Source: Candidatus Saccharimonadota bacterium (GTDB lineage: Bacteria; Patescibacteriota; Saccharimonadia; CAILAD01; BJGX01). Taken from it: a stretch of 64,000 bases of DNA. Of this stretch, positions 3,956 to 60,309 are shown piece after piece. Within the stretch, counting starts at the first letter, position 1, and each line of letters opens with the position of its first letter. The stretch lies in contig JAXLZU010000001.1 in the NCBI GenBank assembly GCA_046350735.1, positions 684,462 to 748,461 of the forward strand, in the 5' to 3' direction. The notes under the pieces were generated by a model that saw nothing but the letters and a program-made list of their open reading frames with translations, was not told where the DNA came from and made no database searches. A program made the translations under genes and the position numbers.

Positions 3956-6356
<2,401 letters not shown>

Positions 6357-6359
6357 TGG

Positions 6360-7775
6360 TTATGCCACTCCATCCTTTAACGTCTTGGCGATTAACTTGG
6401 TTACCACTTCGTCACTTTGAGGTTTATGAATAGGAAGCTTTTTCTGTACTAGTCGTTTTAATTTATCAATATCGAGCTGACCAGCGCCTTTATTTCCCAA
6501 CACAACTTCTATCATTGCTCTTTGTTGCGGCAAAGAGAAGAAATCATTTGGTTCTTGGCTAAGCGACTCTGTTAGTTGTCGTCCAATCTCTATCTCTTGC
6601 TGAGCAAAATCGCTCATCTGATCACTAAACCGTGTATACTCTTCGGCACTGCGAAAATTTGATAGTTCTTGCATAACCTTAGCCGAGAGCTGTTGCATGG
6701 TCGGATTTTGACTACGACCACCAATACGACTGACAGAGAGGTTAATATTAATTGCCGGCATTATACCACGACGTAATATTTCGGTATCAAACACAATTTG
6801 TCCGTCTGTCATAGAGATTAAGCTGGTTGCCTGATACCCGGTGAGATCGTTATTGGGCGTTGCACCTGCTACTAAAATAGTCTGGCTAAACCCAGTAGCT
6901 TTTAATTTGCCAGCTCGCTCTAAAAGAGCCGATTGCACGTGGAACATATCACCTGGGTAAGCCTCACGACCAGCATTATTACGAAGTAACAGTGACATTT
7001 CTCGGTAGAGTTTGGCAAAGTTAGAAAAATCATCATATAGCACTACTACATCTTTCTTTTGATGCCAGAAATACTCAGCTACCGCACAACCAGCGTATGG
7101 TGCTAATACACCAAGAGGCAATGATTCTCCGGCAACTGTTACCACGAGAGTGATGTGTTGCATTACCCCGGCTTTTTTAAAGACCTCTACTAGTCGATTA
7201 ACTTCAATGCGACGTTTGGCTATTAATACATATACTACCGATTTACCCGACTTAGCCTGTGCAATTGCTACTTGGGTCATAAACGAGGTTTTACCCGACT
7301 TACTATCTCCCATAATTGCAATGCGTTGACCTTTTACAATAGGGAGCAAGGTGTCTACATAACTCACACCAGTAACGAGCTGTTCGTTAAGATCGTCACG
7401 TTCTTGAAAATTAGGAGCACTGCGAAAATATGGTACTTGGCTACTGGTAGCAAGATAGCCTCGGCCATCAAGCGGTTTACCAAGTGGGTCGATAACTCTG
7501 CCAACAATACCTTTGCCTACTGGTAAGCTAATGCTTTCTGATTGCAACGCTACCAGCTCACCAGCTCGTACGGGCTGATTATTTAGCAGCAATATTTCTA
7601 GGCCATCTGTGTCTATTTGCCAAACCACCCCTCTTGCTCCACCAGCAAATACCACCTCTGCAAATACTGGTGCGCCAGCCAATGGTGTGGTGAGCACAAT
7701 ACATTCTCGTACTGCCACTACCTCGGCAGTAGCTTTAGTCTTGGTAACTCGTGTTTTTGGTTCTACCTTAGGCAT
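6360..7775 (-). CDS. atpA: F1-ATPase alpha-like subunit (copy 1).
   Basis: GQRIAIMGDSKSGKTSFMTQ (alpha P-loop), YVLIAKRR, LAPYAGCAVAEYF, VLYDDFSNFAKLYREMSLLLRNNAGREAYPGDMFHVQSALLERAGKL. These are near-canonical alpha motifs, including the arginine-finger region. Confidence 0.85.
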   Translation of the reverse strand: MPKVEPKTRVTKTKATAEVVAVRECIVLTTPLAGAPVFAEVVFAGGARGVVWQIDTDGLEILLLNNQPVRAGELVALQSESISLPVGKGIVGRVIDPLGKPLDGRGYLATSSQVPYFRSAPNFQERDDLNEQLVTGVSYVDTLLPIVKGQRIAIMGDSKSGKTSFMTQVAIAQAKSGKSVVYVLIAKRRIEVNRLVEVFKKAGVMQHITLVVTVAGESLPLGVLAPYAGCAVAEYFWHQKKDVVVLYDDFSNFAKLYREMSLLLRNNAGREAYPGDMFHVQSALLERAGKLKATGFSQTILVAGATPNNDLTGYQATSLISMTDGQIVFDTEILRRGIMPAININLSVSRIGGRSQNPTMQQLSAKVMQELSNFRSAEEYTRFSDQMSDFAQQEIEIGRQLTESLSQEPNDFFSLPQQRAMIEVVLGNKGAGQLDIDKLKRLVQKKLPIHKPQSDEVVTKLIAKTLKDGVA

Positions 7776-13669: not shown

Positions 13670-13746
13670 GGGCGCGTAGCTCAGATGGTTAGAGCGCGTC
13701 ACTGATAATGACGAGGTCCCTGGTTCAATTCCAGGCGTGCCCACCA
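13670..13746 (+). tRNA. tRNA-Ile (anticodon GAT), CCA encoded.
   Basis: Cloverleaf read by hand: acceptor GGGCGCG/CGTGCCC, D-arm GCTC-AGATGGTTA-GAGC, anticodon arm CGTCA-CTGATAA-TGACG, T-arm CCTGG-TTCAATT-CCAGG, then ACCA. Confidence 0.9.
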
Positions 13747-13764
13747 GAAAAATATTTACAATAC

Positions 13765-13841
13765 GGGGCATTAGCTCAGCTGGCTAGAGCACCTGCTTTG
13801 CAAGCAGGGGGTCCGGGGTTCGAATCCCCGATGCTCCACCA
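13765..13841 (+). tRNA. tRNA-Ala (anticodon TGC), with the G3:U70 identity pair and CCA encoded.
   Basis: GGGGCAT...GCTC-AGCTGGCTA-GAGC...CCTGC-TTTGCAA-GCAGG...CGGGG-TTCGAAT-CCCCG-ATGCTCC-A-CCA. Confidence 0.9.
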
Positions 13842-16127: not shown

Positions 16128-17672
<1,545 letters not shown>

Positions 17673-17714
17673 AAAAAGAAAAGTGATCAAGACCACAAAG
17701 ACAACTATTTCTTT

Positions 17715-26466: not shown

Positions 26467-26584
26467 TATCTCCTGCTCTCTTACAATTTGGATTTAGCGT
26501 AAATAACCAAATTGGTAGCTCTTTTATTATACCGCTTACGTTTGCAGATTGGCAACAGATTGTAAAACTTTTGTTATATAGCAG

Positions 26585-26848
26585 TTAGATATTTGCAAAT
26601 ACTACTACATAATTGTTGTGTACTTTTACAACACCTCTATTAATATCGTAGCTGCGACGACCAAATGGGGTATGTATTGTTACCTTGCCCTGTTGTAATA
26701 AACCAATAAAATTAGCATGGCCATAGAGTACGTCAAAAGGGCCAGTAGCTGTGTTGGCAGATAGGCTAGCAGCCGGACCTTCGTAAAAGATTTCGAATGG
26801 TGAAAAAATCTTTATACTTAGTTGGTTTGTCTTAGTATTTGCCTGCAT
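26585..26848 (-). CDS. F1-ATPase epsilon-like subunit, beta-sandwich only (copy 2).
   Basis: 87 aa. FSPFEIFYEGPA...GPFDVLYGHANF. Paralog of 3956..4210. Confidence 0.5.
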   Translation of the reverse strand: MQANTKTNQLSIKIFSPFEIFYEGPAASLSANTATGPFDVLYGHANFIGLLQQGKVTIHTPFGRRSYDINRGVVKVHNNYVVVFANI

Positions 26849-26852
26849 TGTA

Positions 26853-28184
26853 TTACGTGCCCGCCAAAATTTCTTCTACACCCGCAAGCATATCCTCACG
26901 CGACACATACTCACCATCATTGCCAGTAAGTGGCTGCACAACAAACAAATTCTGAGCAAAGTATGCTACTAGGCGCTTAGCCTTTTGATAATCACTCCTA
27001 TCATTAAGAGAGAGCTCGCCCTCACCTATAATCGAGATAATGTTACGAAGCTCATTGTATTTGCTGAGTATTGCCTGTACCTGGGTAGCCAAAATATAAT
27101 GCCGTTCGCCAACAATCTCGGTCGTTAGCAAAGAAGACTGAGTAGCCAATAAATCAATTGCCGGAAAGATGCCTCGCTCCATTACATCACGACTAAGTAC
27201 AATTACCGAGTCGAGTTGTTGATAAATTTCTACTACTGCAGGGTCGCTAATATCATCGGCTGGGATATAGATAGATTGTACCGACGTAATTGATCCATTC
27301 TCGTTGCTATCTAGGCTGTCTTCAAATCGTACAAGATCGGTAAATAGAGTAGGCTGATAGCCACCCTCAGATGGTTGCTCACCCAGCATTATAGAGAGTT
27401 CATTACGCGCTTGTAAGAATCGGTAGATATTATCAACGAAGAAAAGTACATCTTGTTTTTGATTGTCTCGCCACCACCGTGCAGCTGCAGCGGCAGTTGG
27501 CCCTACCATACTCCTGGCGGCTGCCGACTCATTCATTTGCCCCAAATACATAACGCTTTCTTTGAGGAGATTTGCTCCCTTGAGATTTTCATAAAGCTCA
27601 TGTGCTTCGCGAATGCGCTCACCAATACCCACAAAGAATGATGCACCAGCACCAGTCTGACTTACATTGTGCATTAACTCAGTTACTAGCACTGTTTTGC
27701 CTACGCCTGCCCCACCAATAATTCCAATTTTTCTCCCTTTAACAAATGGTGCAAAGAAATCAATGGCTTTTATGCCAGTCTCAATAATCTCCCCTGAGTA
27801 TGTCTGTGCATTTTTGGGGGCTAGCGCAAACTCAACAGGAGCGGTCTGAACCTTTTTAATAGCTGCAGAATCATCGAGCGTTTCACCCAGAGAGTTAAAT
27901 ACTCGACCAAGTGTAGATTTGCCTACTGGTATTTGTAGCTGTTCTTGGTAGAGCTCGCAGAATGATCCGAGTGGTAAGGCAGCATCCCCACCAATACTTA
28001 GTACAACTGCCTTGGTAGCACCACTATAGCCTAGTATCATTAATCGCGAATGTTGGTCGTTAGCCACTCGCAAAATAGAACCAATTTTCGGTAAAATCTC
28101 ACCAAATTCTAACTCATAGGTAATACCGCGAGCGGCAATTATTTTTCCCCGGGCAGGTGATTTACTTACGTGATTATGCTTCAT
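26853..28184 (-). CDS. F1-ATPase beta-like catalytic subunit (copy 2).
   Basis: [76 protein letters not shown]. Confidence 0.85.
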   Translation of the reverse strand: MKHNHVSKSPARGKIIAARGITYELEFGEILPKIGSILRVANDQHSRLMILGYSGATKAVVLSIGGDAALPLGSFCELYQEQLQIPVGKSTLGRVFNSLGETLDDSAAIKKVQTAPVEFALAPKNAQTYSGEIIETGIKAIDFFAPFVKGRKIGIIGGAGVGKTVLVTELMHNVSQTGAGASFFVGIGERIREAHELYENLKGANLLKESVMYLGQMNESAAARSMVGPTAAAAARWWRDNQKQDVLFFVDNIYRFLQARNELSIMLGEQPSEGGYQPTLFTDLVRFEDSLDSNENGSITSVQSIYIPADDISDPAVVEIYQQLDSVIVLSRDVMERGIFPAIDLLATQSSLLTTEIVGERHYILATQVQAILSKYNELRNIISIIGEGELSLNDRSDYQKAKRLVAYFAQNLFVVQPLTGNDGEYVSREDMLAGVEEILAGT

Positions 28185-29032
28185 ATAAGCCCCTCTCTAT
28201 CTCTTACAAATACTCGTGTAGCGGCATCTCGGTTTTGGCGCTGCTGCCTACGATAACTTCTATATACATCAGATTTTAGCTCGCCCGCCGCGGTAGAAGC
28301 AGAGCTCATTGCACGAAATCTACTAGCCAGTTGAGCCAGACGCGATTCTAAGATTAATTCAGTTAGTGCGGTGGCACGCATCATACTTTCTAGATAGGTT
28401 ACTACCTCCTCAAGAGAAGGCTCAAATATATAGTCTGATGCAAAAATAAGTGTCGTATTGGTTTTATTAGCCTCGGCCTCACTAAGCCTTGCTATACCAC
28501 CCACCAATTCAAACACCTGAACTTGTTGGGTCGTTAAATTAATAAACTGCTCAAAATATACCACGCATGTCCGATAATCTTGAGTGGCTGAAATAATTGG
28601 CACAACGTTAACGGGCCTAGTGATATCTGGTAATGGATAAACTCTGGTAGGTATTACACCTTTATTGCGCAATAATTTAGCGCCTTTTTTACCAATTACA
28701 TAAAAGTCTGTGGTTTGTTCATTTACCGAACCAAGTACTTCGTCCACCAGTTCTTCGTCAATACTGCCAGACAGTGTATCTTCTGAGCTAATAAGAATAA
28801 CAGCTGTACGATTAAGACTGCGAGTAGGTAGCAAGCTAGCCACAGGCGAGTTGGCATCTACACGCAACTGTACATACATACTCCAGAGCTCGTGAAAAAA
28901 GTCGCGACTAGCAACTACACGGTCACGTATCTGACGAATCTGAATACTGGTAATACTCTCAAAAACCTTTGTAACCTCTTCGATGGTTTCTAGGTCGGTA
29001 TACTGACGGTACATTTCTTGGCTTTTACTCAT
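28181..29032 (-). CDS. F1-ATPase gamma-like subunit (copy 2).
   Basis: 283 aa between alpha-like and beta-like. Paralog of 5520..6356 with the same N-terminal pattern (TKVFESITSIQIRQIRDRV versus THIFENVASIRIRQIKEQV). Confidence 0.6.
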   Translation of the reverse strand: MSKSQEMYRQYTDLETIEEVTKVFESITSIQIRQIRDRVVASRDFFHELWSMYVQLRVDANSPVASLLPTRSLNRTAVILISSEDTLSGSIDEELVDEVLGSVNEQTTDFYVIGKKGAKLLRNKGVIPTRVYPLPDITRPVNVVPIISATQDYRTCVVYFEQFINLTTQQVQVFELVGGIARLSEAEANKTNTTLIFASDYIFEPSLEEVVTYLESMMRATALTELILESRLAQLASRFRAMSSASTAAGELKSDVYRSYRRQQRQNRDAATRVFVRDREGLI

Positions 29033-30456
29033 TGTTTTACCGCCGGCTTACTCTTTAATAGTTCTGCTGCAATCTTAACATATTGCTCTGGCTTAATTTC
29101 TTCTCCGGCCACATCATGAATAATACTCTTTAGCCAAGCAATACTGACATCTTCGGGTTTGTCTGACTGCATAAGAGCATCGAGCATAATAAATTGTTCT
29201 TTGGCAGAGTATTGTTCGCTAGGCAATTGAGTAAATAACTCATACAGTTTTTCACCACGTGCAATTTCACTTTTGACTGTTTCTGACTGGTCAGACCCAA
29301 ACCGAGCAAAATCTCGCGCTTCACGGTAATTGGCAAGCCTTGCGATAACTGCTCTAGACAGTTTCTGAAACTGCTGACTTTGAGAGCGTCCACCGACACG
29401 ACTAACTGATAGGTTAACATCAATAGCTGGGCGAATGTTACGAGCCATAGTCTCAGCATCAAAAACAATCTGCCCATCTGTCATAGAAATAAGACTAGTA
29501 GATAGATAGCCGGTGATATCGCCGGTAGGGTTAGTGCCAGCTGCCAAGACTGTCTGCGTAGCACCATTGCGCCGTAACTTGCCAGCCCGTTCTAGTAGAG
29601 AAGAGTGCATATAAAACATATCGCCAGGATAGCCATCACGGCCTGGCGGCTGCTTAAGTAGAAGTGATAGCTCTCGATACATTTTGGCATGTGCACTAAG
29701 ATCGTCATAAAACACTACTGTATCTTTGCCTTGACGCCAAAAACTCTCTGCCAATGCACAACCAACATATGGTGCAATAAAAGCCGCCGGTAGACTATCA
29801 AATGCATCAGCAATCACAAGGATGGTTTTATCTATTACTCCAGCATCAGCTAAGCGCTGCTGCAAGCGAGCAACATCATAGCGACGTTTGGCAATTGCAA
29901 CATAGACAATCACACAATCTTGATTTTTTTGATGAGCTGCAACCTGGCTCATAAAAGTTGTTTTACCAGTTTTATTATCACCAATAATGGCAATACGTTG
30001 CCCTTTAACAATCGGGAACAATGTATCTACCATTAAGACGCCGGTCTCGAGCTGTTCATTAACAATAGCGCGTTCGTGAAACGTTGGTGCCGCGCCAAAA
30101 ACTGGTAGAGGAGTACCACTAGGCTCTACTTTCTTGCCATCAATGGTTTGCAGTAATGGGTCTACACTATGACCAAGAATGTTATTATCGGCTCTCACAT
30201 AGAGGCTATTACCGGCAAGTTTTGCACTAGTACCCACCACTACTTTAGAATTACGTGCTAATAATAAGACGGTAACCGACTGCTCAGATACTTGCCATAT
30301 TAGTCCTGCTTCACCTGTGCCAAATTTCATCACGCCACCCACTGTAGCCTCAGCAATTGGTTCGGTATGCGCTATGCAATCAAAAAGAGAGATAACTTTG
30401 ACACTCTTTGCTTTATTGGATATTGTGTGATCTTCTTTCATATAGTTACCGTCCAA
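29029..30456 (-). CDS. F1-ATPase alpha-like subunit (copy 2). The start may be the internal ATG at 30441.
   Basis: GQRIAIIGDNKTGKTTFMSQ, YVAIAKRR, APYVGCALAESF, VFYDDLSAHAKMYRELSLLLKQPPGRDGYPGDMFYMHSSLLERAGKL. Confidence 0.85.
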   Translation of the reverse strand: MDGNYMKEDHTISNKAKSVKVISLFDCIAHTEPIAEATVGGVMKFGTGEAGLIWQVSEQSVTVLLLARNSKVVVGTSAKLAGNSLYVRADNNILGHSVDPLLQTIDGKKVEPSGTPLPVFGAAPTFHERAIVNEQLETGVLMVDTLFPIVKGQRIAIIGDNKTGKTTFMSQVAAHQKNQDCVIVYVAIAKRRYDVARLQQRLADAGVIDKTILVIADAFDSLPAAFIAPYVGCALAESFWRQGKDTVVFYDDLSAHAKMYRELSLLLKQPPGRDGYPGDMFYMHSSLLERAGKLRRNGATQTVLAAGTNPTGDITGYLSTSLISMTDGQIVFDAETMARNIRPAIDVNLSVSRVGGRSQSQQFQKLSRAVIARLANYREARDFARFGSDQSETVKSEIARGEKLYELFTQLPSEQYSAKEQFIMLDALMQSDKPEDVSIAWLKSIIHDVAGEEIKPEQYVKIAAELLKSKPAVKQ

Positions 30457-31291
30457 TTATTAAATATACTATTGAGAATCCAGAAAGCATAATTACCACT
30501 ACTGCAATAATTACTTGAATTAAACTTTGTAAAATAGAATGTCGACTAAGTGGATTTCGCCCTATAGAGCGTATGCTGCTTGCTACTGCGGTATAAAGAA
30601 TAAGTACTGAGATAACTACCGATATAAGCAACACCAATAACGCCAAGAGTGCCCTAGCTGTTGAAATACTCTTGCCCGTTGTACTTGTGGCCACAGCTTG
30701 CACTGCCGAAATAATTCCATTACCAGTAAGTGTTGGTTGGTTTTGATAATTACCCACTATAATGTTGGCCGAGACCTGGCCTAGAGCTACTTCACTCGTC
30801 TCGCCTTTCTTATTGGTAATACTTTGACGAGAAGTGGCATTACCTGCACTAAAACTATTCGTTGCAGTACCAACAATTTTACCCGCAGCAGTAGCTTTCA
30901 TGGCAACACCTGCTATAGGCGATGTAGTCAGCGAGTCTCCTTTGGCAATATCACCATTTATATTACTTACCAATATTACAGCATTGCCCGCAGTAACCAC
31001 TAAGGTATTGCCATTGTTAGAATTAAGATTTACTAGGCTGGCCTGAGAGGCAACTGTCACCCCCAATAAATTATCGGTGTTACTCGAGTTAGCTGGAATA
31101 ATTTGCGAGCTACTACCCTGTTGAAGCGCCACCAAAGAACCGGCTGGAATGGCAGAAGATGCAGTGTAGCTCTGACTAATAGTATCAGCTCTAGCAGCTA
31201 GTATTTGTATCGCAACAAATACTAACGACAAGACAAGACTAGCAACTGGGAGAAAATATTTTTTTAGCATACCAAAAACCATTCGCCTCAA
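30446..31291 (-). CDS. Signal peptide, extracellular domain, then a c-subunit-like hairpin with Gln at the carboxylate position (copy 2 of 8770..9594).
   Basis: ...VASSIRSIGRNPLSRHSILQSLIQVIIAVVVIM. The IRSIGRNP loop is identical to copy 1. The middle domain shares ING(D/E)I..GD.LT.SPIAGV.MKAT...GTA..SF with copy 1. No D/E in the TM helices. Confidence 0.5.
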   Translation of the reverse strand: MRRMVFGMLKKYFLPVASLVLSLVFVAIQILAARADTISQSYTASSAIPAGSLVALQQGSSSQIIPANSSNTDNLLGVTVASQASLVNLNSNNGNTLVVTAGNAVILVSNINGDIAKGDSLTTSPIAGVAMKATAAGKIVGTATNSFSAGNATSRQSITNKKGETSEVALGQVSANIIVGNYQNQPTLTGNGIISAVQAVATSTTGKSISTARALLALLVLLISVVISVLILYTAVASSIRSIGRNPLSRHSILQSLIQVIIAVVVIMLSGFSIVYLIIGR

Positions 31292-39005: not shown

Positions 39006-41789
39006 TCAGACTATTTTACTCTTACTTATAGTGTTGCTCGTTAACAACCCGTTTTCTATGCTGTTCATATGCTTTGCTATCTCCTTCTGACTAGGGTTAG
39101 CTCCACAATCTATCCAAATTCTCATACTTACCCGCTTCTTATTCGCGCCAGCTAGTTCTTCGCTGGTGAATTCTTGGATAAATTGTATGCGAGATACATG
39201 TTTTTGCGATTTTGTAATCAATGCAATATCTTGCCAAAGAATTTCATTAGATAATTCTAACGTAAGATCTCGACTAACAAGTTGGTAGGGGAGAGATGGT
39301 ACCGATTTTTGGGCAATTTCGGTAAAGATAGATTGATCGGGCAAAGTTAGTTCTGCAAAACTTACTTCTTCATTAATTGAGAATTTTTTTAGACAAACAG
39401 GTTTTATTTGTCCATAAACTCCTTTTACCTCGGGTATACGCTGGCTTTGCAAAATAGCAGTTCTACCAGCCAAGAAATTGTCTTCTTCACTCCGGCTATA
39501 TGTAAAGGCCAGTTGATAACGACTTTCACACATATCGAGTACACTCTTTATTCTCTCAAGCCCGTTTTGACCAACTGCAGTTATTGCCAATCGCCAACCT
39601 TCTTCTGCTAGTGTCTTCGAGCGAGGAGATTTATTATAGATTCGTGCAAGCTCAAAGAATCCATACTCTTTTTGATAAAATGTATTGTTTCGCGCTGCTG
39701 TCTGCAAATGACTACTTAAGAGTGAGTTGCGCAAATAGGCTTGTTCTTTACTCATAGGGTTTTCTATTGCCAGCACACTAGTTGGATCAATAGTAGTGTC
39801 TAGCAGATCTTGCTGACTAACAAAAGAGTATGTAGTTACTTCAAATAGTCCAGCTGCTACCAAATCTTCGCGCATACCCATTAGCCCGGGTAACATCTGA
39901 TGATCAGACGTTTCCATAGGAGGTAATTCGGGCAATTCGCTCGGCATATTTTCATAACCCACTATCTTAGCTGCCTCTTCTATCAGGTCGACTTCTTTGG
40001 TAATATCAGTACGCCACCAGGGTGCAACAACTGCAATTATATGATTAAAGCTACTAACATAACGCCGTGCTCCTTTAAAACTAGGGTTAGTAGTATAACT
40101 TTCGAGTGATGTATAGCGCACATCGGCCGTTTTGCGCTGTTTATATCTACCAGTTTTAGCATCAAACTCATATTCGCTAGCCTCTATAACTTGGTTTTTA
40201 CCCAAATACATACCAACATGCCCTATATCGCCGCGGCTTTTGGCGTCTAATTTTTCCCAGTGCCCAGAGTAAAATAGCAGATCTCCAGGCTTGAGATTAT
40301 CTTTGTCGACAGGCTTTCCAGAGTTAAATTGTTGCTGTGCAGTGTGCCCAATAGTTATACCAATTTTTGAATATATTCTCTCTACTAAATACGAGCAGTC
40401 AAAAGCGTCTTCGCCGTTTTTCTTAAAGCTAGCACCATATACATAGGGTTTACCAAGATGTTTTTTAGCCTCGCTCGAGAGAGAAAAGTGTTCTGCACTA
40501 AACCCACGCGCACGCAACCCTTCAATTATTTCTTTTTCATTCAGCTTTGTACCAAGCACCATTTCTGCCCGGCGCTGACGCAAACCAACATACGATATCC
40601 ATGGCCATGCATATAATTGATCATTTACTTCATCAAGCAACTCGGCATGACAAATTTCTTTCAATAATTGTGCAGCTCGCTCAAAAGCAAAACAGGGAAG
40701 GGGGAGTGGGAGACCTTTCTCGAATCGAGTACTTGCCTCAGAACGTAAGCCGTGACGCAGTGCACTTCTTCGAATAGTAGTTTTATTAAAGTTAGCAACT
40801 TCTAAGACAATCTCTTGTGTTTGGTTACTTACTTCGCTACTGGCTCCACCCATTACACCTGCCAGTCCAATGGCACCCGAATTATCTGCAATCACTAAGT
40901 CCTCTTTGCTTAGCTTTCTTTCTACGCCATCCAAAGTAGAGAGGGCTTCACCGGCTTTGGCAAATCGCACCTGCAAAGCACCACTAAGTTTTTTTCTATC
41001 ATAAGCATGACTTGGTTGGCCAGTTTCTAACATCACATAGTTAGTAATATCTACAACGGGGTGAATAGCACGCATCCCTGAAGCTTCTAAGTTTTCCACA
41101 ATCCAAGCCGGAGTCTCGACATTGTTATTAATACGAAATGCTGCGCTGACAAATCGCTCACACTCCCCAGTTTCCTTGACTTTCACCACTTCTCTGTTTT
41201 TATATTCAATTTTCTGTCGTTCTGGTTCTACAATCTGGTTTTTAGAAGAATTAGCAGAAATTTCGCGCGCCAAACCCAAAACCGACAATAAGTCCCACCG
41301 GTTTGCAGGCGTCTTAACATCCACAATATCGGTCATATTCTCTATGTCGCACAATGATATTCCAAGGGGGAGATCAGGGTCGAGCTCTAACAAGCCGGTA
41401 TGGTCACTACCCATGCCTAGCTCTTTTGCCGATGCCAGCATTCCGGCCGACATTTCGCCACGAATTTCTCGCTCACCAATTACAAAATCTTCCGGTAAGA
41501 CACTACCGGGCTGAGCATATGCTACCACCAAACCTTTTCGAACATTGGGCGCGCCGCAGACAACTCGACGTGTAGTGTTGCCAAACTCTATATCTACCAA
41601 GTGTAATTTATCAGCATTTGGATGGTCTATTACATTTACCACTTTGGCAATAATTACTTTTTTATCTAACTTGGGTGGCGTAATAACTTCTTCTATTTCT
41701 ACCTCGGTACGCTCTAATGCTGCCACAATCTCATCAGTAGAAAGAGATTTTTTTAGATAACGATTTAGCCATTGTATACGTACTTTCAT
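39006..41789 (-). CDS. pheT: Phenylalanine--tRNA ligase beta subunit, with a roughly 150-aa NlpC/P60-like insertion inside the B5 domain.
   Basis: N-terminal tRNA-binding domain, B3/4, B5 flanks (LRQRRAEMVLG...IIEGLRARGF / IIAVVAPWWRTDITKEVDLIEEAAKIVGYENMP), catalytic-like core and C-terminal anticodon-binding domain. 927 aa. Confidence 0.9.
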   Translation of the reverse strand: MKVRIQWLNRYLKKSLSTDEIVAALERTEVEIEEVITPPKLDKKVIIAKVVNVIDHPNADKLHLVDIEFGNTTRRVVCGAPNVRKGLVVAYAQPGSVLPEDFVIGEREIRGEMSAGMLASAKELGMGSDHTGLLELDPDLPLGISLCDIENMTDIVDVKTPANRWDLLSVLGLAREISANSSKNQIVEPERQKIEYKNREVVKVKETGECERFVSAAFRINNNVETPAWIVENLEASGMRAIHPVVDITNYVMLETGQPSHAYDRKKLSGALQVRFAKAGEALSTLDGVERKLSKEDLVIADNSGAIGLAGVMGGASSEVSNQTQEIVLEVANFNKTTIRRSALRHGLRSEASTRFEKGLPLPLPCFAFERAAQLLKEICHAELLDEVNDQLYAWPWISYVGLRQRRAEMVLGTKLNEKEIIEGLRARGFSAEHFSLSSEAKKHLGKPYVYGASFKKNGEDAFDCSYLVERIYSKIGITIGHTAQQQFNSGKPVDKDNLKPGDLLFYSGHWEKLDAKSRGDIGHVGMYLGKNQVIEASEYEFDAKTGRYKQRKTADVRYTSLESYTTNPSFKGARRYVSSFNHIIAVVAPWWRTDITKEVDLIEEAAKIVGYENMPSELPELPPMETSDHQMLPGLMGMREDLVAAGLFEVTTYSFVSQQDLLDTTIDPTSVLAIENPMSKEQAYLRNSLLSSHLQTAARNNTFYQKEYGFFELARIYNKSPRSKTLAEEGWRLAITAVGQNGLERIKSVLDMCESRYQLAFTYSRSEEDNFLAGRTAILQSQRIPEVKGVYGQIKPVCLKKFSINEEVSFAELTLPDQSIFTEIAQKSVPSLPYQLVSRDLTLELSNEILWQDIALITKSQKHVSRIQFIQEFTSEELAGANKKRVSMRIWIDCGANPSQKEIAKHMNSIENGLLTSNTISKSKIV

Positions 41790-57060: not shown

Positions 57061-60000
57061 TTGGTATTTACGAGCTTTGTTACTTTGTTTGCTAACCCTC
57101 TACCTGCACACGCTGCTTCGCTTACCTGGGATGGTGGTGGTGCTGATAACAATTGGAGCACTTGTGCTAACTGGACAACTGATACTTGCCCAATTGCAGG
57201 TGATACTGTTACTTTTAATGCAACATCAACCAAGAACTCGACAATAGATGCAGGTGCACCTGCTAGTGTTGCAACACTAACTATTGCAGCTGGTTATACC
57301 GGCACAATCACCCTAGCACGGACCTTCGCAACTACCACTACATTTTCTCAAGCAACAGGCAGTTTTACTGCATCCAATTAATCCCTCACTATGGCGGCCT
57401 TTACACTCTCCGGTGGGACATTTACTGCTAGTTCTGGTACGACAACCGTTAGTGGAGCCGTGACAGTATCGGGTACACCAACGTTTAATCACAATAGTGG
57501 CACCGTCACCTTTTCGGGTGGTGCTGCAACTATAGCTTGTAACGGGATCTCACTCAATACGGCAACCTTTACCAATACGGGCCTAAAAACAATTAGCTCG
57601 GGATGTACTATTCCGATGGGGGCCAGCCCCACTATTGCTAACGCTGTAACTGTAAATGGCACTCTATCTGGCAGCGGCACACTTACTATCACTACAGGTA
57701 CTTTTTTGCTCGGTACTACCGGAAGTCTTTCGGGATTTACAGGTATATCTGCTGGGTCCAACCTAACCATAAATGGTACCCTCAACGCGAGTAGCTATTT
57801 ACCATTTTCCGTAACAGGAGCATTTGCCCTAGGTGGAACTGCTACTTTTACTGCCCCGAGTGGCACACTCTCGGCAGGAAGTCTCAATTTTACACTTGGG
57901 TCTACATTCAGTGCGAATGGCGGCACCATAGATTTTACTGGGGGTTCTTCATCATCTGTTTGTGGCAATGCAGTGTTTAATCTAGTTACGTTTCACAACA
58001 CAGCAACAAAGACCATTGGCAGTGATTGCACACTGCCATTAGGTAATAATCCTACAATTTCCAACGCTATTACTTTGAATGGCACGTTTACTGGCAGCGG
58101 TACATTAACAACCACCACTGGTGGCTTTACTATAGGAACAACTGGAGTATTGTCTGGATTTTCTGGTATCAGTACCGGCGCTGCTTTAACTATAAATGGC
58201 ACACTTAATGCGGGCAGCTATTCTACTTTTACTTCTGTAGGGGCTTTTACTCTAGGTGCAGCATCGGTCTTTACTGCTCCATCTGGTTCTATGAGCCTAC
58301 AAGGCAGTGTCACTTTTACTGCGGGTATGACATTCAATGCCAATGGTGGAACGATTAATTTAATTGGAAGCAGTGGTACCATCTCATGTGCAAATGCTAC
58401 TTTCAATCTAGTATCAATTAGTGCTGGTACGAATACCAAAACAATAAATAGTGATTGTAATCTGCCTCTCGGTAACAATCCATCAATTACTCGTGTAGTA
58501 CTAAATGGTACTCTTTCTGGAACAGGCACACTCACCCATACTACCTCAACATTTCAGTTAAATGCCGGTGCTACACTAAGCGGATTTACAGGACTGCAGG
58601 ATAATGTCTCTCTCATTATTGCAGGTGCCAACCTAGATGTAAGCACATATAGTACGTTTAATGTTGCTGCGATACAGATGACATCAGGTTCATTAACAGC
58701 ACCCCCAGGAATTATGAATGTAAGCGCTAATTTAACTTTTACAGGAGGGGTGTTTAATGCTAATGGCGGAACAACAAACTTTTATAGTTCAACTTCGGCA
58801 TCAGTAGCTTGCAATAATGCCGTTTTTAATCATGTTACTCTAAATAAAAGCAATGTTATAACAATAGGTAGTGATTGCTCATTACCGTTAGGCAATAATC
58901 CTACAATAACTAATAGTGTCAATGTGAATGGTACACTTACAGGTACAGGAACCTTAACTGCCGCCATTCTTACTCTTAATGCTGGGTCAAATCTCTCAGG
59001 TTTTACTGGCATAGAGGTAAATTACCTCACAATTTCAGGAGCAACATATGATGCAAGCACATATTCACTTTTTAATGTTTCAGGTGGATATATTCAAACT
59101 GGAGGCTTTGTTACTCTGCCTTCAGCTGGAGCTTCATTCTTTAATTTTAATTTAAATGCTGGCTCAACCTTAACTGCTTCTACGGGTGTAATCAGTATTG
59201 AGGGCAATTTTACTACAGCTGCTGGATCTATTTTTAATGCCAATGGCGGAACCATTACATTTGTCGGTACCAATAGTCAAATATTAGGTTGTTATGGAAC
59301 TGTTTTTAACTCTGTTGTAATTAATAAATTTTCTGGTGACATGTTTATTAACTCTCTATGTAATTTACCTTTGGGGAGCAATCCAACTGTATATATTGGT
59401 GGTACATTATTTTTAAACGGTCAATTATCAGGAGCTGGAACACTTAGTAATTCGTCTGGTACACTAACTATTCTGTCATCCGCTGAACTCAGTGGTTTTA
59501 CTGGTTTGAATGTTAACAATTTAACCTTAGATGAAGCTAATGCTGATTTTGGTACATATAATACGCTTGATATTAACGGGACGTTATGGGTATCAACCAA
59601 TTCGACCTTCAAGGCAACATCTGCAATTATGACAATAAGTGGCTGGTTACTACTAGATAGCGGCTCTACATTCGATGCAAACAATGGTACGGTAATTTTA
59701 GATGGCAACAATCAGCAGATCAATGGTAGCATAACGTTTTATGACCTTACTAAGCACATTGCTAGCACAGATACGCTAACTTTTTCAGCAGGCTCAACTC
59801 AAACAATTTTGGGAGCACTGAGTTTTAAAGGTGCAAATACAGATAATCTCTTAAATCTCGTATCGTCCGACCCAGGGGTTACTCCCTGGATTATAGATGC
59901 CCAGGGTAGTAGAACTCTCCAATACCTTAATGTAAGTGATAGTACTAATATTAATCCCGCAGTAATGATAGCCTATGACAGTATTAATAGTGGTAATAAT

Positions 60001-60309
60001 ACCAATTGGAGTTTTCAGAGCACGCCTGCCCCTCCCACTCCTACGCCTACTCCAGATAATCCTAGCTCTTCGACAGTAACAAATAACACGAATGGATATG
60101 TATTACATCCAGCTGATGCTATTGAAGGCAGCGTTACGATAGTTGATAGTAATAATAACAACCCAGATAACGCCGGCAGAAAACCTAACAAAAATCCTAA
60201 TCAAACCTATACATTTATCTGGTGGTCATCCATTATCGGCATACTGCTTCTTACCGCTCTTCTGGCTTATATTCTCTACGTTACAGATAAGAAAAACCAC
60301 CATACATAG
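57061..60309 (+). CDS. Large repeat surface protein: signal peptide, about seven roughly 135-aa tandem repeats, Pro/Thr linker and a C-terminal TM anchor. An in-frame TAA at 57379-57381 interrupts it. It may be a pseudogene, or there may be a sequencing error.
   Basis: ORFs 57061..57381 and 57391..60309 are in the same frame, separated only by TAA. The repeat unit carries NGGTI.F.G...C.NA.FN.V....KTIGSDC.LPLGNNPTI...LNGTL.G.GTLT. The C-terminal anchor is WWSSIIGILLLTALLAYILYV. Confidence 0.55.

Follow-up and report, generated by a model that had tools for sequence, protein, structure and literature searches.

An F1-like ATPase gene cluster without stalk genes and its possible link to surface fibres in Saccharibacteria

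Saccharibacteria, like other Patescibacteria, are ultrasmall epibionts without a respiratory chain, which makes an "ATP synthase" in their genomes puzzling. The canonical enzyme was found to be dispensable in the one genetically tractable Saccharibacteria species (PMC10633639). In this study, we asked what is encoded by an F1-like gene cluster that has no genes for the stalk subunits b and delta, referred to here as cluster 2 (31291-26585, minus strand), and that lies in a window of 64,000 nucleotides (nt) from Candidatus Saccharimonadota bacterium (assembly GCA_046350735.1, contig JAXLZU010000001.1, positions 684,462-748,461). A related cluster in the same window is called cluster 1 (9594-3956, minus strand), and the protein encoded in the slot of subunit c is called cX. 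A preliminary description of this DNA had proposed that the duplicated genes serve a dedicated machine rather than a degraded ATP synthase. That proposal is upheld by the intact catalytic motifs, a ratio of nonsynonymous to synonymous substitution rates (dN/dS) of about 0.03, the occurrence in dozens of Saccharibacteria genomes, the lack of subunits a and c nearby and the recurrent link between cX and surface proteins. Taken as a whole, we hold with moderate confidence that the clusters encode an ATP-consuming F1-like machine that is coupled via cX to surface fibres.

F1 identity of the cluster 2 genes

All five open reading frames (ORFs) that had been described for 26585-31291, with their tight or overlapping junctions, were found on the minus strand in the order cX2-alpha-gamma-beta-epsilon, with overlaps of 11, 4 and 4 nt followed by a gap of 4 nt (aa, amino acids; TM, transmembrane):

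31291-30446, minus strand: cX2, 281 aa; signal peptide, extracellular beta domain and C-terminal two-helix membrane hairpin with the loop SIGRNPLS
30456-29029, minus strand: alpha2, 475 aa; Pfam ATP-synt_ab 6.7e-64, Walker A GDNKTGKT, arginine finger SVSRVGG
29032-28181, minus strand: gamma2, rotor subunit-like, 283 aa; Pfam ATP-synt gamma 5.2e-30, NCBIfam gamma equivalog 76.6 bits
28184-26853, minus strand: beta2, catalytic, 443 aa; Pfam ATP-synt_ab 1.2e-60, catalytic Glu, Walker B D, YIPADD
26848-26585, minus strand: epsilon2, 87 aa; Pfam ATP-synt_DE_N 2.6e-13 over residues 10-86

The cX2 frame overlaps that of alpha2, which leaves no space between them for b or delta, and neither gene was found in cluster 2, as the preliminary description had stated. 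Cluster 1 has the fuller set of cX1, b-like, delta-like, alpha1, gamma1, beta1 and epsilon1 genes:

9594-8770, minus strand: cX1, paralog of cX2 with 36% identity
8768-8211, minus strand: b-like stalk protein, 185 aa; N-terminal TM helix, long helix and conserved C-terminal motif
8211-7768, minus strand: delta/OSCP-like protein, 147 aa; Pfam OSCP 0.0036
7775-6360, minus strand: alpha1, F1-like
6356-5520, minus strand: gamma1, F1-like
5532-4207, minus strand: beta1, F1-like
4210-3956, minus strand: epsilon1, F1-like

In both clusters, Pfam recognised the alpha, beta and gamma subunits and, for epsilon, the N-terminal domain; OSCP was weakly recognised in the 147-aa protein. The four F1-like subunits were shown to be genuine but divergent F1 homologs in which all of the catalytic motifs are intact. 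Beta aligned over its full length with solved F1 betas (PDB, 343 bits) with Walker A, the catalytic GER, Walker B and the adenine-binding Tyr in place, and it ends about 25 residues before the canonical C-terminus. Epsilon (84-87 aa) consists of the beta-sandwich domain only, without the C-terminal inhibitory helices. With the NCBIfam models, alpha and beta scored 357-414 bits as F1 compared with about 141-208 bits for the FliI and type III secretion system (T3SS) models. An identity as FliI or Rho, which the preliminary description had named as the finding that would overturn it, was ruled out by these model scores, those of FliI/SctN being about half of the F1 scores; moreover, separate alpha and beta genes are present together with gamma and epsilon, whereas FliI/YscN is a homohexamer without a separate alpha and beta. 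The distance from the canonical enzyme is visible in the equivalog cut-offs, which were missed by beta (406.6 and 410 against 462.85 bits), alpha (357 and 324 against 484.45), gamma (77 and 62 against 194.45), epsilon (46 and 35 against 67.25) and delta (18.7 against 57.5). The top NCBIfam match of beta2 was the mycoplasma F1-like beta MSC_0618 (413.9 bits, below the family cut-off of 570), and that of beta1 was the N-ATPase model alt_F1F0_F1_bet (418 bits, below the cut-off of 752).

The closest resemblance in architecture was found in mycoplasmas, in which the Type 3 F1-like X0 ATPase is needed for the MIB-MIP antibody-cleavage surface system (PMC12994834), and in which a Type 2 F1-like ATPase powers gliding (PMC11864180). 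Type 3 (MSC_0618/0619; MMCAP2_0575-0581) is a seven-gene cluster without a or c and, as here, combines F1-derived alpha, beta, gamma and epsilon with a subunit in which a signal peptide and ectodomains are followed by two TM helices at the C-terminus, to which cX is the counterpart by architecture. It is also genetically linked to surface proteins in a genome-reduced, host-dependent bacterium, and its alpha, like alpha2, is without the N-terminal delta-binding helix. However, the Type 3 models were matched well below their cut-offs (beta2 413.9 and beta1 384.7 against 570 bits; alpha 241 and 214 against 520), the X0 part includes a 12-TM protein and a small cytoplasmic protein, neither of which occurs in the Saccharibacteria clusters, and most of the latter keep b- and delta-like genes, have fibres or giant proteins rather than MIB-MIP as partners and belong to another phylum. 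The Type 2 G1-ATPase of Mycoplasma mobile (MMOB1660/1670) is an F1-like ATPase repurposed to move surface proteins, as would be the case here, and its models matched the alpha and beta of the window at 286-340 bits (cut-offs 600 and 850; PDB 9io5_A, 275 bits), but the large N-terminal extension of the G1 beta and its dimeric chains inside the cell have no equivalent here, nor do its partner genes.

Two further families were compared. Canonical F1Fo (atpIBEFHAGDC) has in common with these clusters the order (c)-b-delta-alpha-gamma-beta-epsilon, homologous F1 subunits and the catalytic residues, whereas here there is no a, an ectodomain protein of 270-300 aa without the ion-binding carboxylate takes up the c slot, epsilon has no C-terminal domain, beta is about 25 residues shorter and cluster 2 is without b and delta. 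N-ATPase (atpDCQRBEFAG) is likewise a second, divergent F-type operon that is able to coexist with another, but it keeps a, b, an ion-binding c and AtpQ/R in another gene order, none of which was found here, where the order is F-type; its models scored 400-418 bits for beta (cut-off 752) and 317 bits for alpha (cut-off 750). Because the defining features of each of these families were tested and not found, the system falls outside canonical F1Fo, N-ATPase, mycoplasma Type 2/3 and FliI, and it is best filed as a further kind of repurposed F1-like ATPase.

Absence of Fo and the protein in the c slot

The search for a proton turbine was extended to 84 fetched loci with about 10 kb of flank each and to three contexts seeded with beta, 87 in total; individual loci are cited below by their L numbers. 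No match to a canonical a or c was obtained by tblastn, with query sequences that included E. coli a, in the 1.3 Mb formed by the window and the 84 loci. Similarly, neither Pfam ATP-synt_A (PF00119) nor ATP-synt_C was detected in the three beta-seeded contexts, and PF00119 was absent from the other annotated contexts. Thus, no a subunit or ion-binding c subunit was found within about 10 kb in the 87 related loci, and neither cluster of the window has a polytopic gene. In the beta-seeded contexts, b, delta, alpha, gamma, beta and epsilon were present each time, and two of the three begin with cX and are followed by genes for Kelch/TIG proteins of 1390-1730 aa.

Most of these clusters retain genes of a stator stalk. 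The profile of the delta-like family matched the delta/OSCP chains of many solved ATP synthases (best E 2.2e-06), which at the level of sequence makes it a genuine OSCP/delta homolog. The b-like proteins are probably homologous to b, as suggested by their architecture, position and a weak profile match to mycobacterial subunit b (E 0.007) amid apolipoprotein-type helices.

In the place of subunit c stands cX (270-300 aa), directly upstream of b where b is present. In the AlphaFold 2 model (pLDDT 78), the signal peptide is followed by an ectodomain of about 150 residues that is rich in beta structure, then by a short helix and finally by a hairpin of two TM helices at the C-terminus. The ectodomain has the fold of phage capsid-decoration proteins, with which weak Pfam XM1_gp53 matches in 11 of 20 members agree, and it also resembles the C-terminal autochaperone fragment of phi29 gp12 as well as fibre-base and decoration proteins. 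The cytoplasmic loop S-I-G-R-N-P is invariant in 78 distinct cX hairpins. None of the 78 has an acidic residue in the membrane core of helix 2 (P+13 to P+32); the position equivalent to the c carboxylate, P+18, is V, L or A, and P+12 varies between Q, S, E and R. No NCBIfam model matched cX, and none of the models of the mycoplasma X0 subunits matched the b-like protein or p206, the protein encoded directly upstream of cX2.

The preliminary description had called this gene a c-like fusion that precedes the cluster. Its position was borne out, and the likeness to c was only weakly backed by sequence. A hairpin with both termini outside, a cytoplasmic loop of the R-(Q/N)-P type and the slot upstream of b are all compatible with c. 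The cX hairpin profile found a single match among 177,635 PDB sequences, the c subunit 9itj_H, with the IGRNP loop in register (E 0.14), and hhalign placed the hairpin in register with eight c subunits (P 0.004-0.005, probability 7-9%). On the other hand, Pfam ATP-synt_C was essentially silent on full-length cX and on the hairpins and never reached the gathering score, the pilin families of type IV secretion systems (T4SS) being equally weak, and the hairpin has no GxGxG motif. A descent of the cX hairpin from subunit c is therefore plausible but unproven.

These features bear on the explanation that is closest to the public annotation, namely that the genes encode a cryptic chemiosmotic F-type enzyme with a divergent Fo, an a-like channel elsewhere in the genome and an ion site at the polar P+12 (Q, sometimes E) of cX. 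Relatives are annotated as 'F0F1 ATP synthase subunit beta', most of the clusters retain stalk genes of the b and delta type and cultured Saccharibacteria have a normal atp operon (PMC10633639). Against this stand the absence of an a subunit across the 87 loci, the lack of acidic residues in the core of helix 2 and the variability of P+12, a cluster 2 without any stalk and the failure of every subunit to reach its equivalog cut-off. A group of freshwater Saccharimonadia metagenome-assembled genomes (MAGs) was, moreover, reported to encode F1 only (PMC9166423), and two of our loci (L018 and L046) derive from MAGs of the order UBA4664 of that study, which suggests that the cX-type enzyme is the only F-type ATPase in such lineages. 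In the cultured Saccharibacterium Southlakia epibionticum there is a single operon of the canonical kind (AtpZ, a, c, b, delta, alpha and so on), all of which is dispensable (PMC10633639), and therefore the cX-type cluster is a different thing; no cX-like annotation was found in the supplement of that paper. Taken together, a chemiosmotic enzyme appears very unlikely.

Duplication, selection and loss of the stalk

If the genes do not encode a conventional ATP synthase, they could be what is left of one. According to this explanation, the clusters are either an ATP synthase operon in decay or an artefact of assembly or duplication, and it could draw on the missing Fo genes, on the additional lack of b and delta in cluster 2 and on an alpha1 that has lost its N-terminal helix motif despite the presence of delta1. 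However, all of the cluster 2 reading frames are intact and translationally coupled, and the catalytic residues are present. Compared with the orthologs in L005 (85-96% aa identity, dS saturated, that of gamma2 not estimable), dN/dS was 0.03 for cX2, alpha2 and beta2, 0.08 for epsilon2, 0.02 for p206 and 0.12 for the fibre protein encoded downstream of epsilon2. Cluster 2 is thus under strong purifying selection wherever dS could be estimated, and seven genomes share its architecture without b and delta, even where identity falls to 44-57%. Because of the low dN/dS and the intact, coupled frames, a decaying remnant can be set aside.

The two clusters were confirmed to be paralogous, with a protein identity of 54% for beta, 46% for alpha, about 40% for gamma, about 43% for epsilon and 36% for cX, and the peculiar motifs FVGIGER(M/I)REA and QMNE(N/S)AA that had been noted earlier are present in both copies. 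The residual DNA similarity that had been reported is also real: collinear blocks align the beta genes (4432-5150 and 27069-27787, 67%) and the alpha genes (6704-7435 and 29376-30107, 65%), and a stretch of 32 nt at the cX loop reaches 84%. An assembly duplicate, which would have overturned the preliminary description, does not fit copies with only 46-54% identity in alpha and beta and with different flanks, and both cluster types recur together in other MAGs (CAYNHH01, L007 and L012; CAILAD01, L008 and L042). The protein identity of 36-54%, the residual collinear DNA similarity and the differing flanks mean that the two clusters are an old duplication and not an assembly artefact. As a whole, the explanation by decay or artefact was judged to be extremely improbable.

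The history of the duplication can be followed in the neighbour-joining tree of beta, in which a clade without b and delta (cluster 2, L005-L009 and L011) is sister to the clade of cluster 1 (with L012, L042, L016 and others), and L048, which has b and delta and whose upstream genes are those of cluster 2, branches just outside both. The upstream context common to cluster 2 and L003/L048 comprises pheS, pheT, an L,D-transpeptidase, a small ORF and the TraG-like, PKD, p206 and cX genes, and because of it we place cluster 2 at the ancestral locus and regard cluster 1 as a copy that was relocated after a lineage-specific duplication.

The loss of the stalk left a trace in alpha. A motif near its N-terminus, F..L(V/I/A)..G, which matches by position the delta-binding helix of canonical alpha, was found in 42 of the 45 alphas that are preceded by a delta-like gene and in none of the seven that are preceded directly by cX. 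This pattern shows that b and delta disappeared from cluster 2 along with the helix motif at the N-terminus of alpha, and because the motif was lost along with b and delta, cluster 2 probably works without a delta-b stalk rather than borrowing that of cluster 1. The first 20 codons of alpha1 are also without the F..L(V/I)..G motif, though b1 and delta1 are intact, and its N-terminus resembles that of alpha2, which could be the result of gene conversion or of an ongoing loss of the stalk.

Surface proteins and the possible function of the machine

The analysis of relatives showed that the F1-like genes recur together with cX and with fibres or large surface proteins that have a type II anchor. 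A pattern scan with one genome per species detected a cX relative in 191 genomes, nearly all of which were labelled Saccharibacteria or Saccharimonadia, and a profile search of 1.84 billion representatives (clustered at 50% identity) returned 10,533 members of the cX family at E <= 0.001, 665 of them at 1e-30 or better, with the top 150 all full-length (248-316 aa). The order cX-(b)-delta-alpha-gamma-beta-epsilon was found in about 50 of the 84 loci, and cX stands immediately upstream with overlapping or abutting frames in about 50 ATPase clusters. In a few loci (L001/L039, L023 and L057), gamma and beta are split by inserted DNA, which in L001/L039 (14441-14956) is a 171-aa ORF on the opposite strand. 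The surface-protein genes of the window that flank the two clusters are:

26466-24055, minus strand: fibre protein, 803 aa; cytoplasmic tail of about 48 aa, one TM helix, extracellular fibre, Peptidase_S74 at 586-639
3841-1, minus strand: large ORF directly downstream of epsilon1, at least 1280 aa, continuing past the window edge
10701-9700, minus strand: S74-domain protein, 333 aa, upstream of cX1
12206-10695, minus strand: collagen-repeat protein, 503 aa, with an N-terminal TM helix, upstream of cX1

Each cluster had been described as followed by a fibre protein with an S74 chaperone domain. This holds for cluster 2, whose 803-aa protein lies downstream; in cluster 1, the S74 protein (333 aa) lies upstream, and the gene that follows epsilon1 is the large ORF. 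Peptidase_S74 (PF13884) scored 58.3 bits (9.6e-16) in the 803-aa protein and 65.1 bits in the 333-aa protein, with a gathering score of 22, and tail-fibre C-termini in PHROG matched the S74 fibre protein at 1.6e-25. In the product of ORF 3841-1, a low-complexity cytoplasmic tail of about 80 aa is joined through a single TM helix to a large extracellular part, and neither Pfam nor PHROG gave a match for it; because it is cut by the window edge, this ORF had been missing from the list of ORFs. Checking synteny across relatives, which the preliminary description had proposed, we found the 803-aa fibre protein conserved downstream of every cluster without b and delta and large N-anchored proteins downstream of epsilon in at least 20 loci as well as after both clusters of the window. 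In the searchable library of papers, none was found that links an F1-like ATPase to surface proteins of Patescibacteria.

A cX gene without an adjacent ATPase occurs in about 25 loci. In 11 of the 14 such loci that were inspected (L020, L026, L027, L030, L032, L033, L061, L065, L076, L077 and L082, with cX at about 10000 in each), the lone cX gene is directly upstream of a gene for a giant protein of 2000-3300 aa, which is anchored by one TM helix and has 45-80 aa in its cytoplasmic tail. These pairs are often located beside parA/parB, and some of the loci carry two pairs of cX and giant protein. Pfam found no meaningful domain in three giant proteins, and the cytoplasmic tails of the anchored giants share no motif except for a basic cluster before the TM helix. 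The lone genes raise the question of whether cX is a mere neighbour of the ATPase, which would then be a membrane-tethered or soluble complex that acts in the cytoplasm, for instance in dissipating ATP or in regulation, with cX as a co-transcribed anchor or assembly factor for the fibres. Besides the lone genes, one ATPase cluster without an adjacent cX (L086) and a homology between cX and c that is not statistically significant are in its favour. Nevertheless, cX occupies the c slot with coupled frames in about 50 clusters, the parts of gamma and epsilon that bind the ring are retained, and the R-N-P loop is invariant in both clustered and lone cX, which points to one common cytoplasmic partner. 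We therefore regard an uninvolved cX as unlikely.

Another explanation takes the link to the surface proteins seriously and reads the machine as an export or assembly ATPase, in which an F1-like head would energise the insertion, secretion or folding of fibres in the manner of FliI6-FliJ, and cX would be a gate or an adaptor and not a rotating ring. F1 and FliI/FliJ are homologous, and the proteins of the window reach 160-208 bits with the FliI models; the genes that flank the cluster encode secreted or anchored proteins of very large size, a TraG/VirD4-like translocase ATPase is encoded in this type of locus, and the resemblance of the cX ectodomain to the phi29 gp12 autochaperone fragment and to fibre-base or decoration proteins would suit a role in assembly. 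Nonetheless, the full rotor set of gamma and the epsilon beta-sandwich is kept, mostly together with the delta-b stator, which fits torque and is without a counterpart in FliI. The fibres and giants have ordinary signal-anchor N-termini that are compatible with Sec, and no polytopic protein resembling an export gate is conserved in the cluster. An export role is thus doubtful, though it deserves to be kept in view.

The coupling of an ATP-consuming machine to surface fibres, which we favour, could operate as follows. The alpha3beta3 head would hydrolyse ATP, and the foot of the gamma-epsilon rotor would engage the cX loop in the way in which it engages the loop of the c-ring in F1Fo, where the R-Q-P loop of the c-ring is the docking site of the rotor foot. 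Torque or force would run through an oligomer of cX to the ectodomain and then to the co-encoded trimeric fibres or giant adhesins, so that ATP would be spent on mechanical work at the surface, such as attachment, fibre movement or remodelling on the host cell, and the machine would neither make ATP nor pump ions. For the stalk-less copy encoded by cluster 2, the 803-aa S74 protein is probably the fibre that it serves. A capacity for torque is likely to have been kept, because the head, gamma, the ring-binding domain of epsilon and mostly the stator stalk are retained, and ion coupling to have been lost, because subunit a and the ring carboxylate are gone; a mechanical output on fibres is suggested by an ectodomain with the fold of trimeric decoration and fibre-base proteins and by the neighbouring trimeric anchored fibres. 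A stronger version of this coupling is possible, and we put it forward only tentatively: cX would form a ring or trimer that is turned at its loop by gamma-epsilon and that rotates or twists the ectodomain and the docked fibres, forming a previously unknown ATP-driven rotary surface motor that epibiotic Saccharibacteria use for host handling, with two specialised copies, one of them stalk-less.

Several observations weigh against such a coupling. Many clusters have no large gene directly downstream, and L086 has no adjacent cX. A b-delta stalk without an a subunit leaves the hold of the stator on the membrane unexplained. The decoration-protein fold is usually trimeric, and trimers of this fold would not give a classical c-ring. 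No physical or co-evolutionary evidence ties gamma or epsilon to cX, the invariant loop leaving any covariation unreadable. The oligomeric state of cX, a trimer or a ring, and the resistance of the stalk-less copy to counter-rotation are further problems for the coupling model.

Upstream of cX2, the locus has its own set of neighbours:

31983-31363, minus strand: p206, directly upstream of cX2; charged, K/E-rich N-terminal part and two C-terminal TM helices
34334-31983, minus strand: PKD-domain surface protein, 783 aa; C-terminal LPxTG-like motif (LPQTG) followed by a TM helix
36920-34416, minus strand: TraG/VirD4-like (type IV coupling protein-like) ATPase, 834 aa, DUF8128 type

The PKD protein context upstream is conserved in L003, L005-L011 and L085. 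The TraG/VirD4-like ATPase and the PKD protein stand upstream of this cluster type (also in L003 and L085), far from virB4-like genes, and p206 occurs only in contexts of this TraG-PKD type. No other gene of the locus is as conserved as p206 (96% identity to the L005 ortholog), whose K/E-rich region is made of repeats and whose TM helices contain an Arg and a Glu. The product of pheT (39006-41789, minus strand) has an NlpC/P60 peptidase domain inserted at aa 446-546, and the same insertion was seen in the L003 ortholog. At 26526-26555 (minus strand), after epsilon2 and before the fibre gene, a sigma-70-like promoter close to the consensus was observed (TTGCCA-18-TATAAT, 11/12), so the fibre gene may have its own promoter; the signal of the promoter and terminator scan as a whole was not above the shuffled background.

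The window itself is bacterial chromosome, with 16S rRNA, tmRNA, two tRNAs, gyrase-like (gyrA/B-like), pheS/pheT and purine genes. A prophage origin of the region was ruled out, given the 16S rRNA, tmRNA, gyrA/B-like and pheST genes and PHROG matches that were limited to the fibre C-termini, cX having none. The complete 16S rRNA gene (16131-17676, minus strand) is solitary, without a 23S in the window, which means that the rRNA operon is unlinked, and at a distance of 2.3 kb the other strand carries tRNA-Ile and tRNA-Ala (13670-13841, plus strand). A 972-aa Gly/Thr/Ser-rich repeat protein without a Pfam match (57391-60309, plus strand) is possibly another surface protein.

For the biology of the group, these results mean that a sizeable set of Saccharibacteria carries an F1 head and rotor without a proton turbine under the annotation of ATP synthase, and metabolic reconstructions that count these genes as ATP synthase would need correcting. 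They also bring to light cX as a large, unnamed membrane family with an outward-facing, phage-like domain. To our knowledge, the only parallels are the mycoplasma F1-like ATPases for gliding and antibody cleavage, and a second, independent case in a genome-reduced, host-dependent lineage would make the idea of F1 as a general surface motor testable. The stalked and stalk-less pair within one genome offers a ready-made comparison, and cX together with the fibres provides concrete candidates for the host-attachment machinery of these epibionts.

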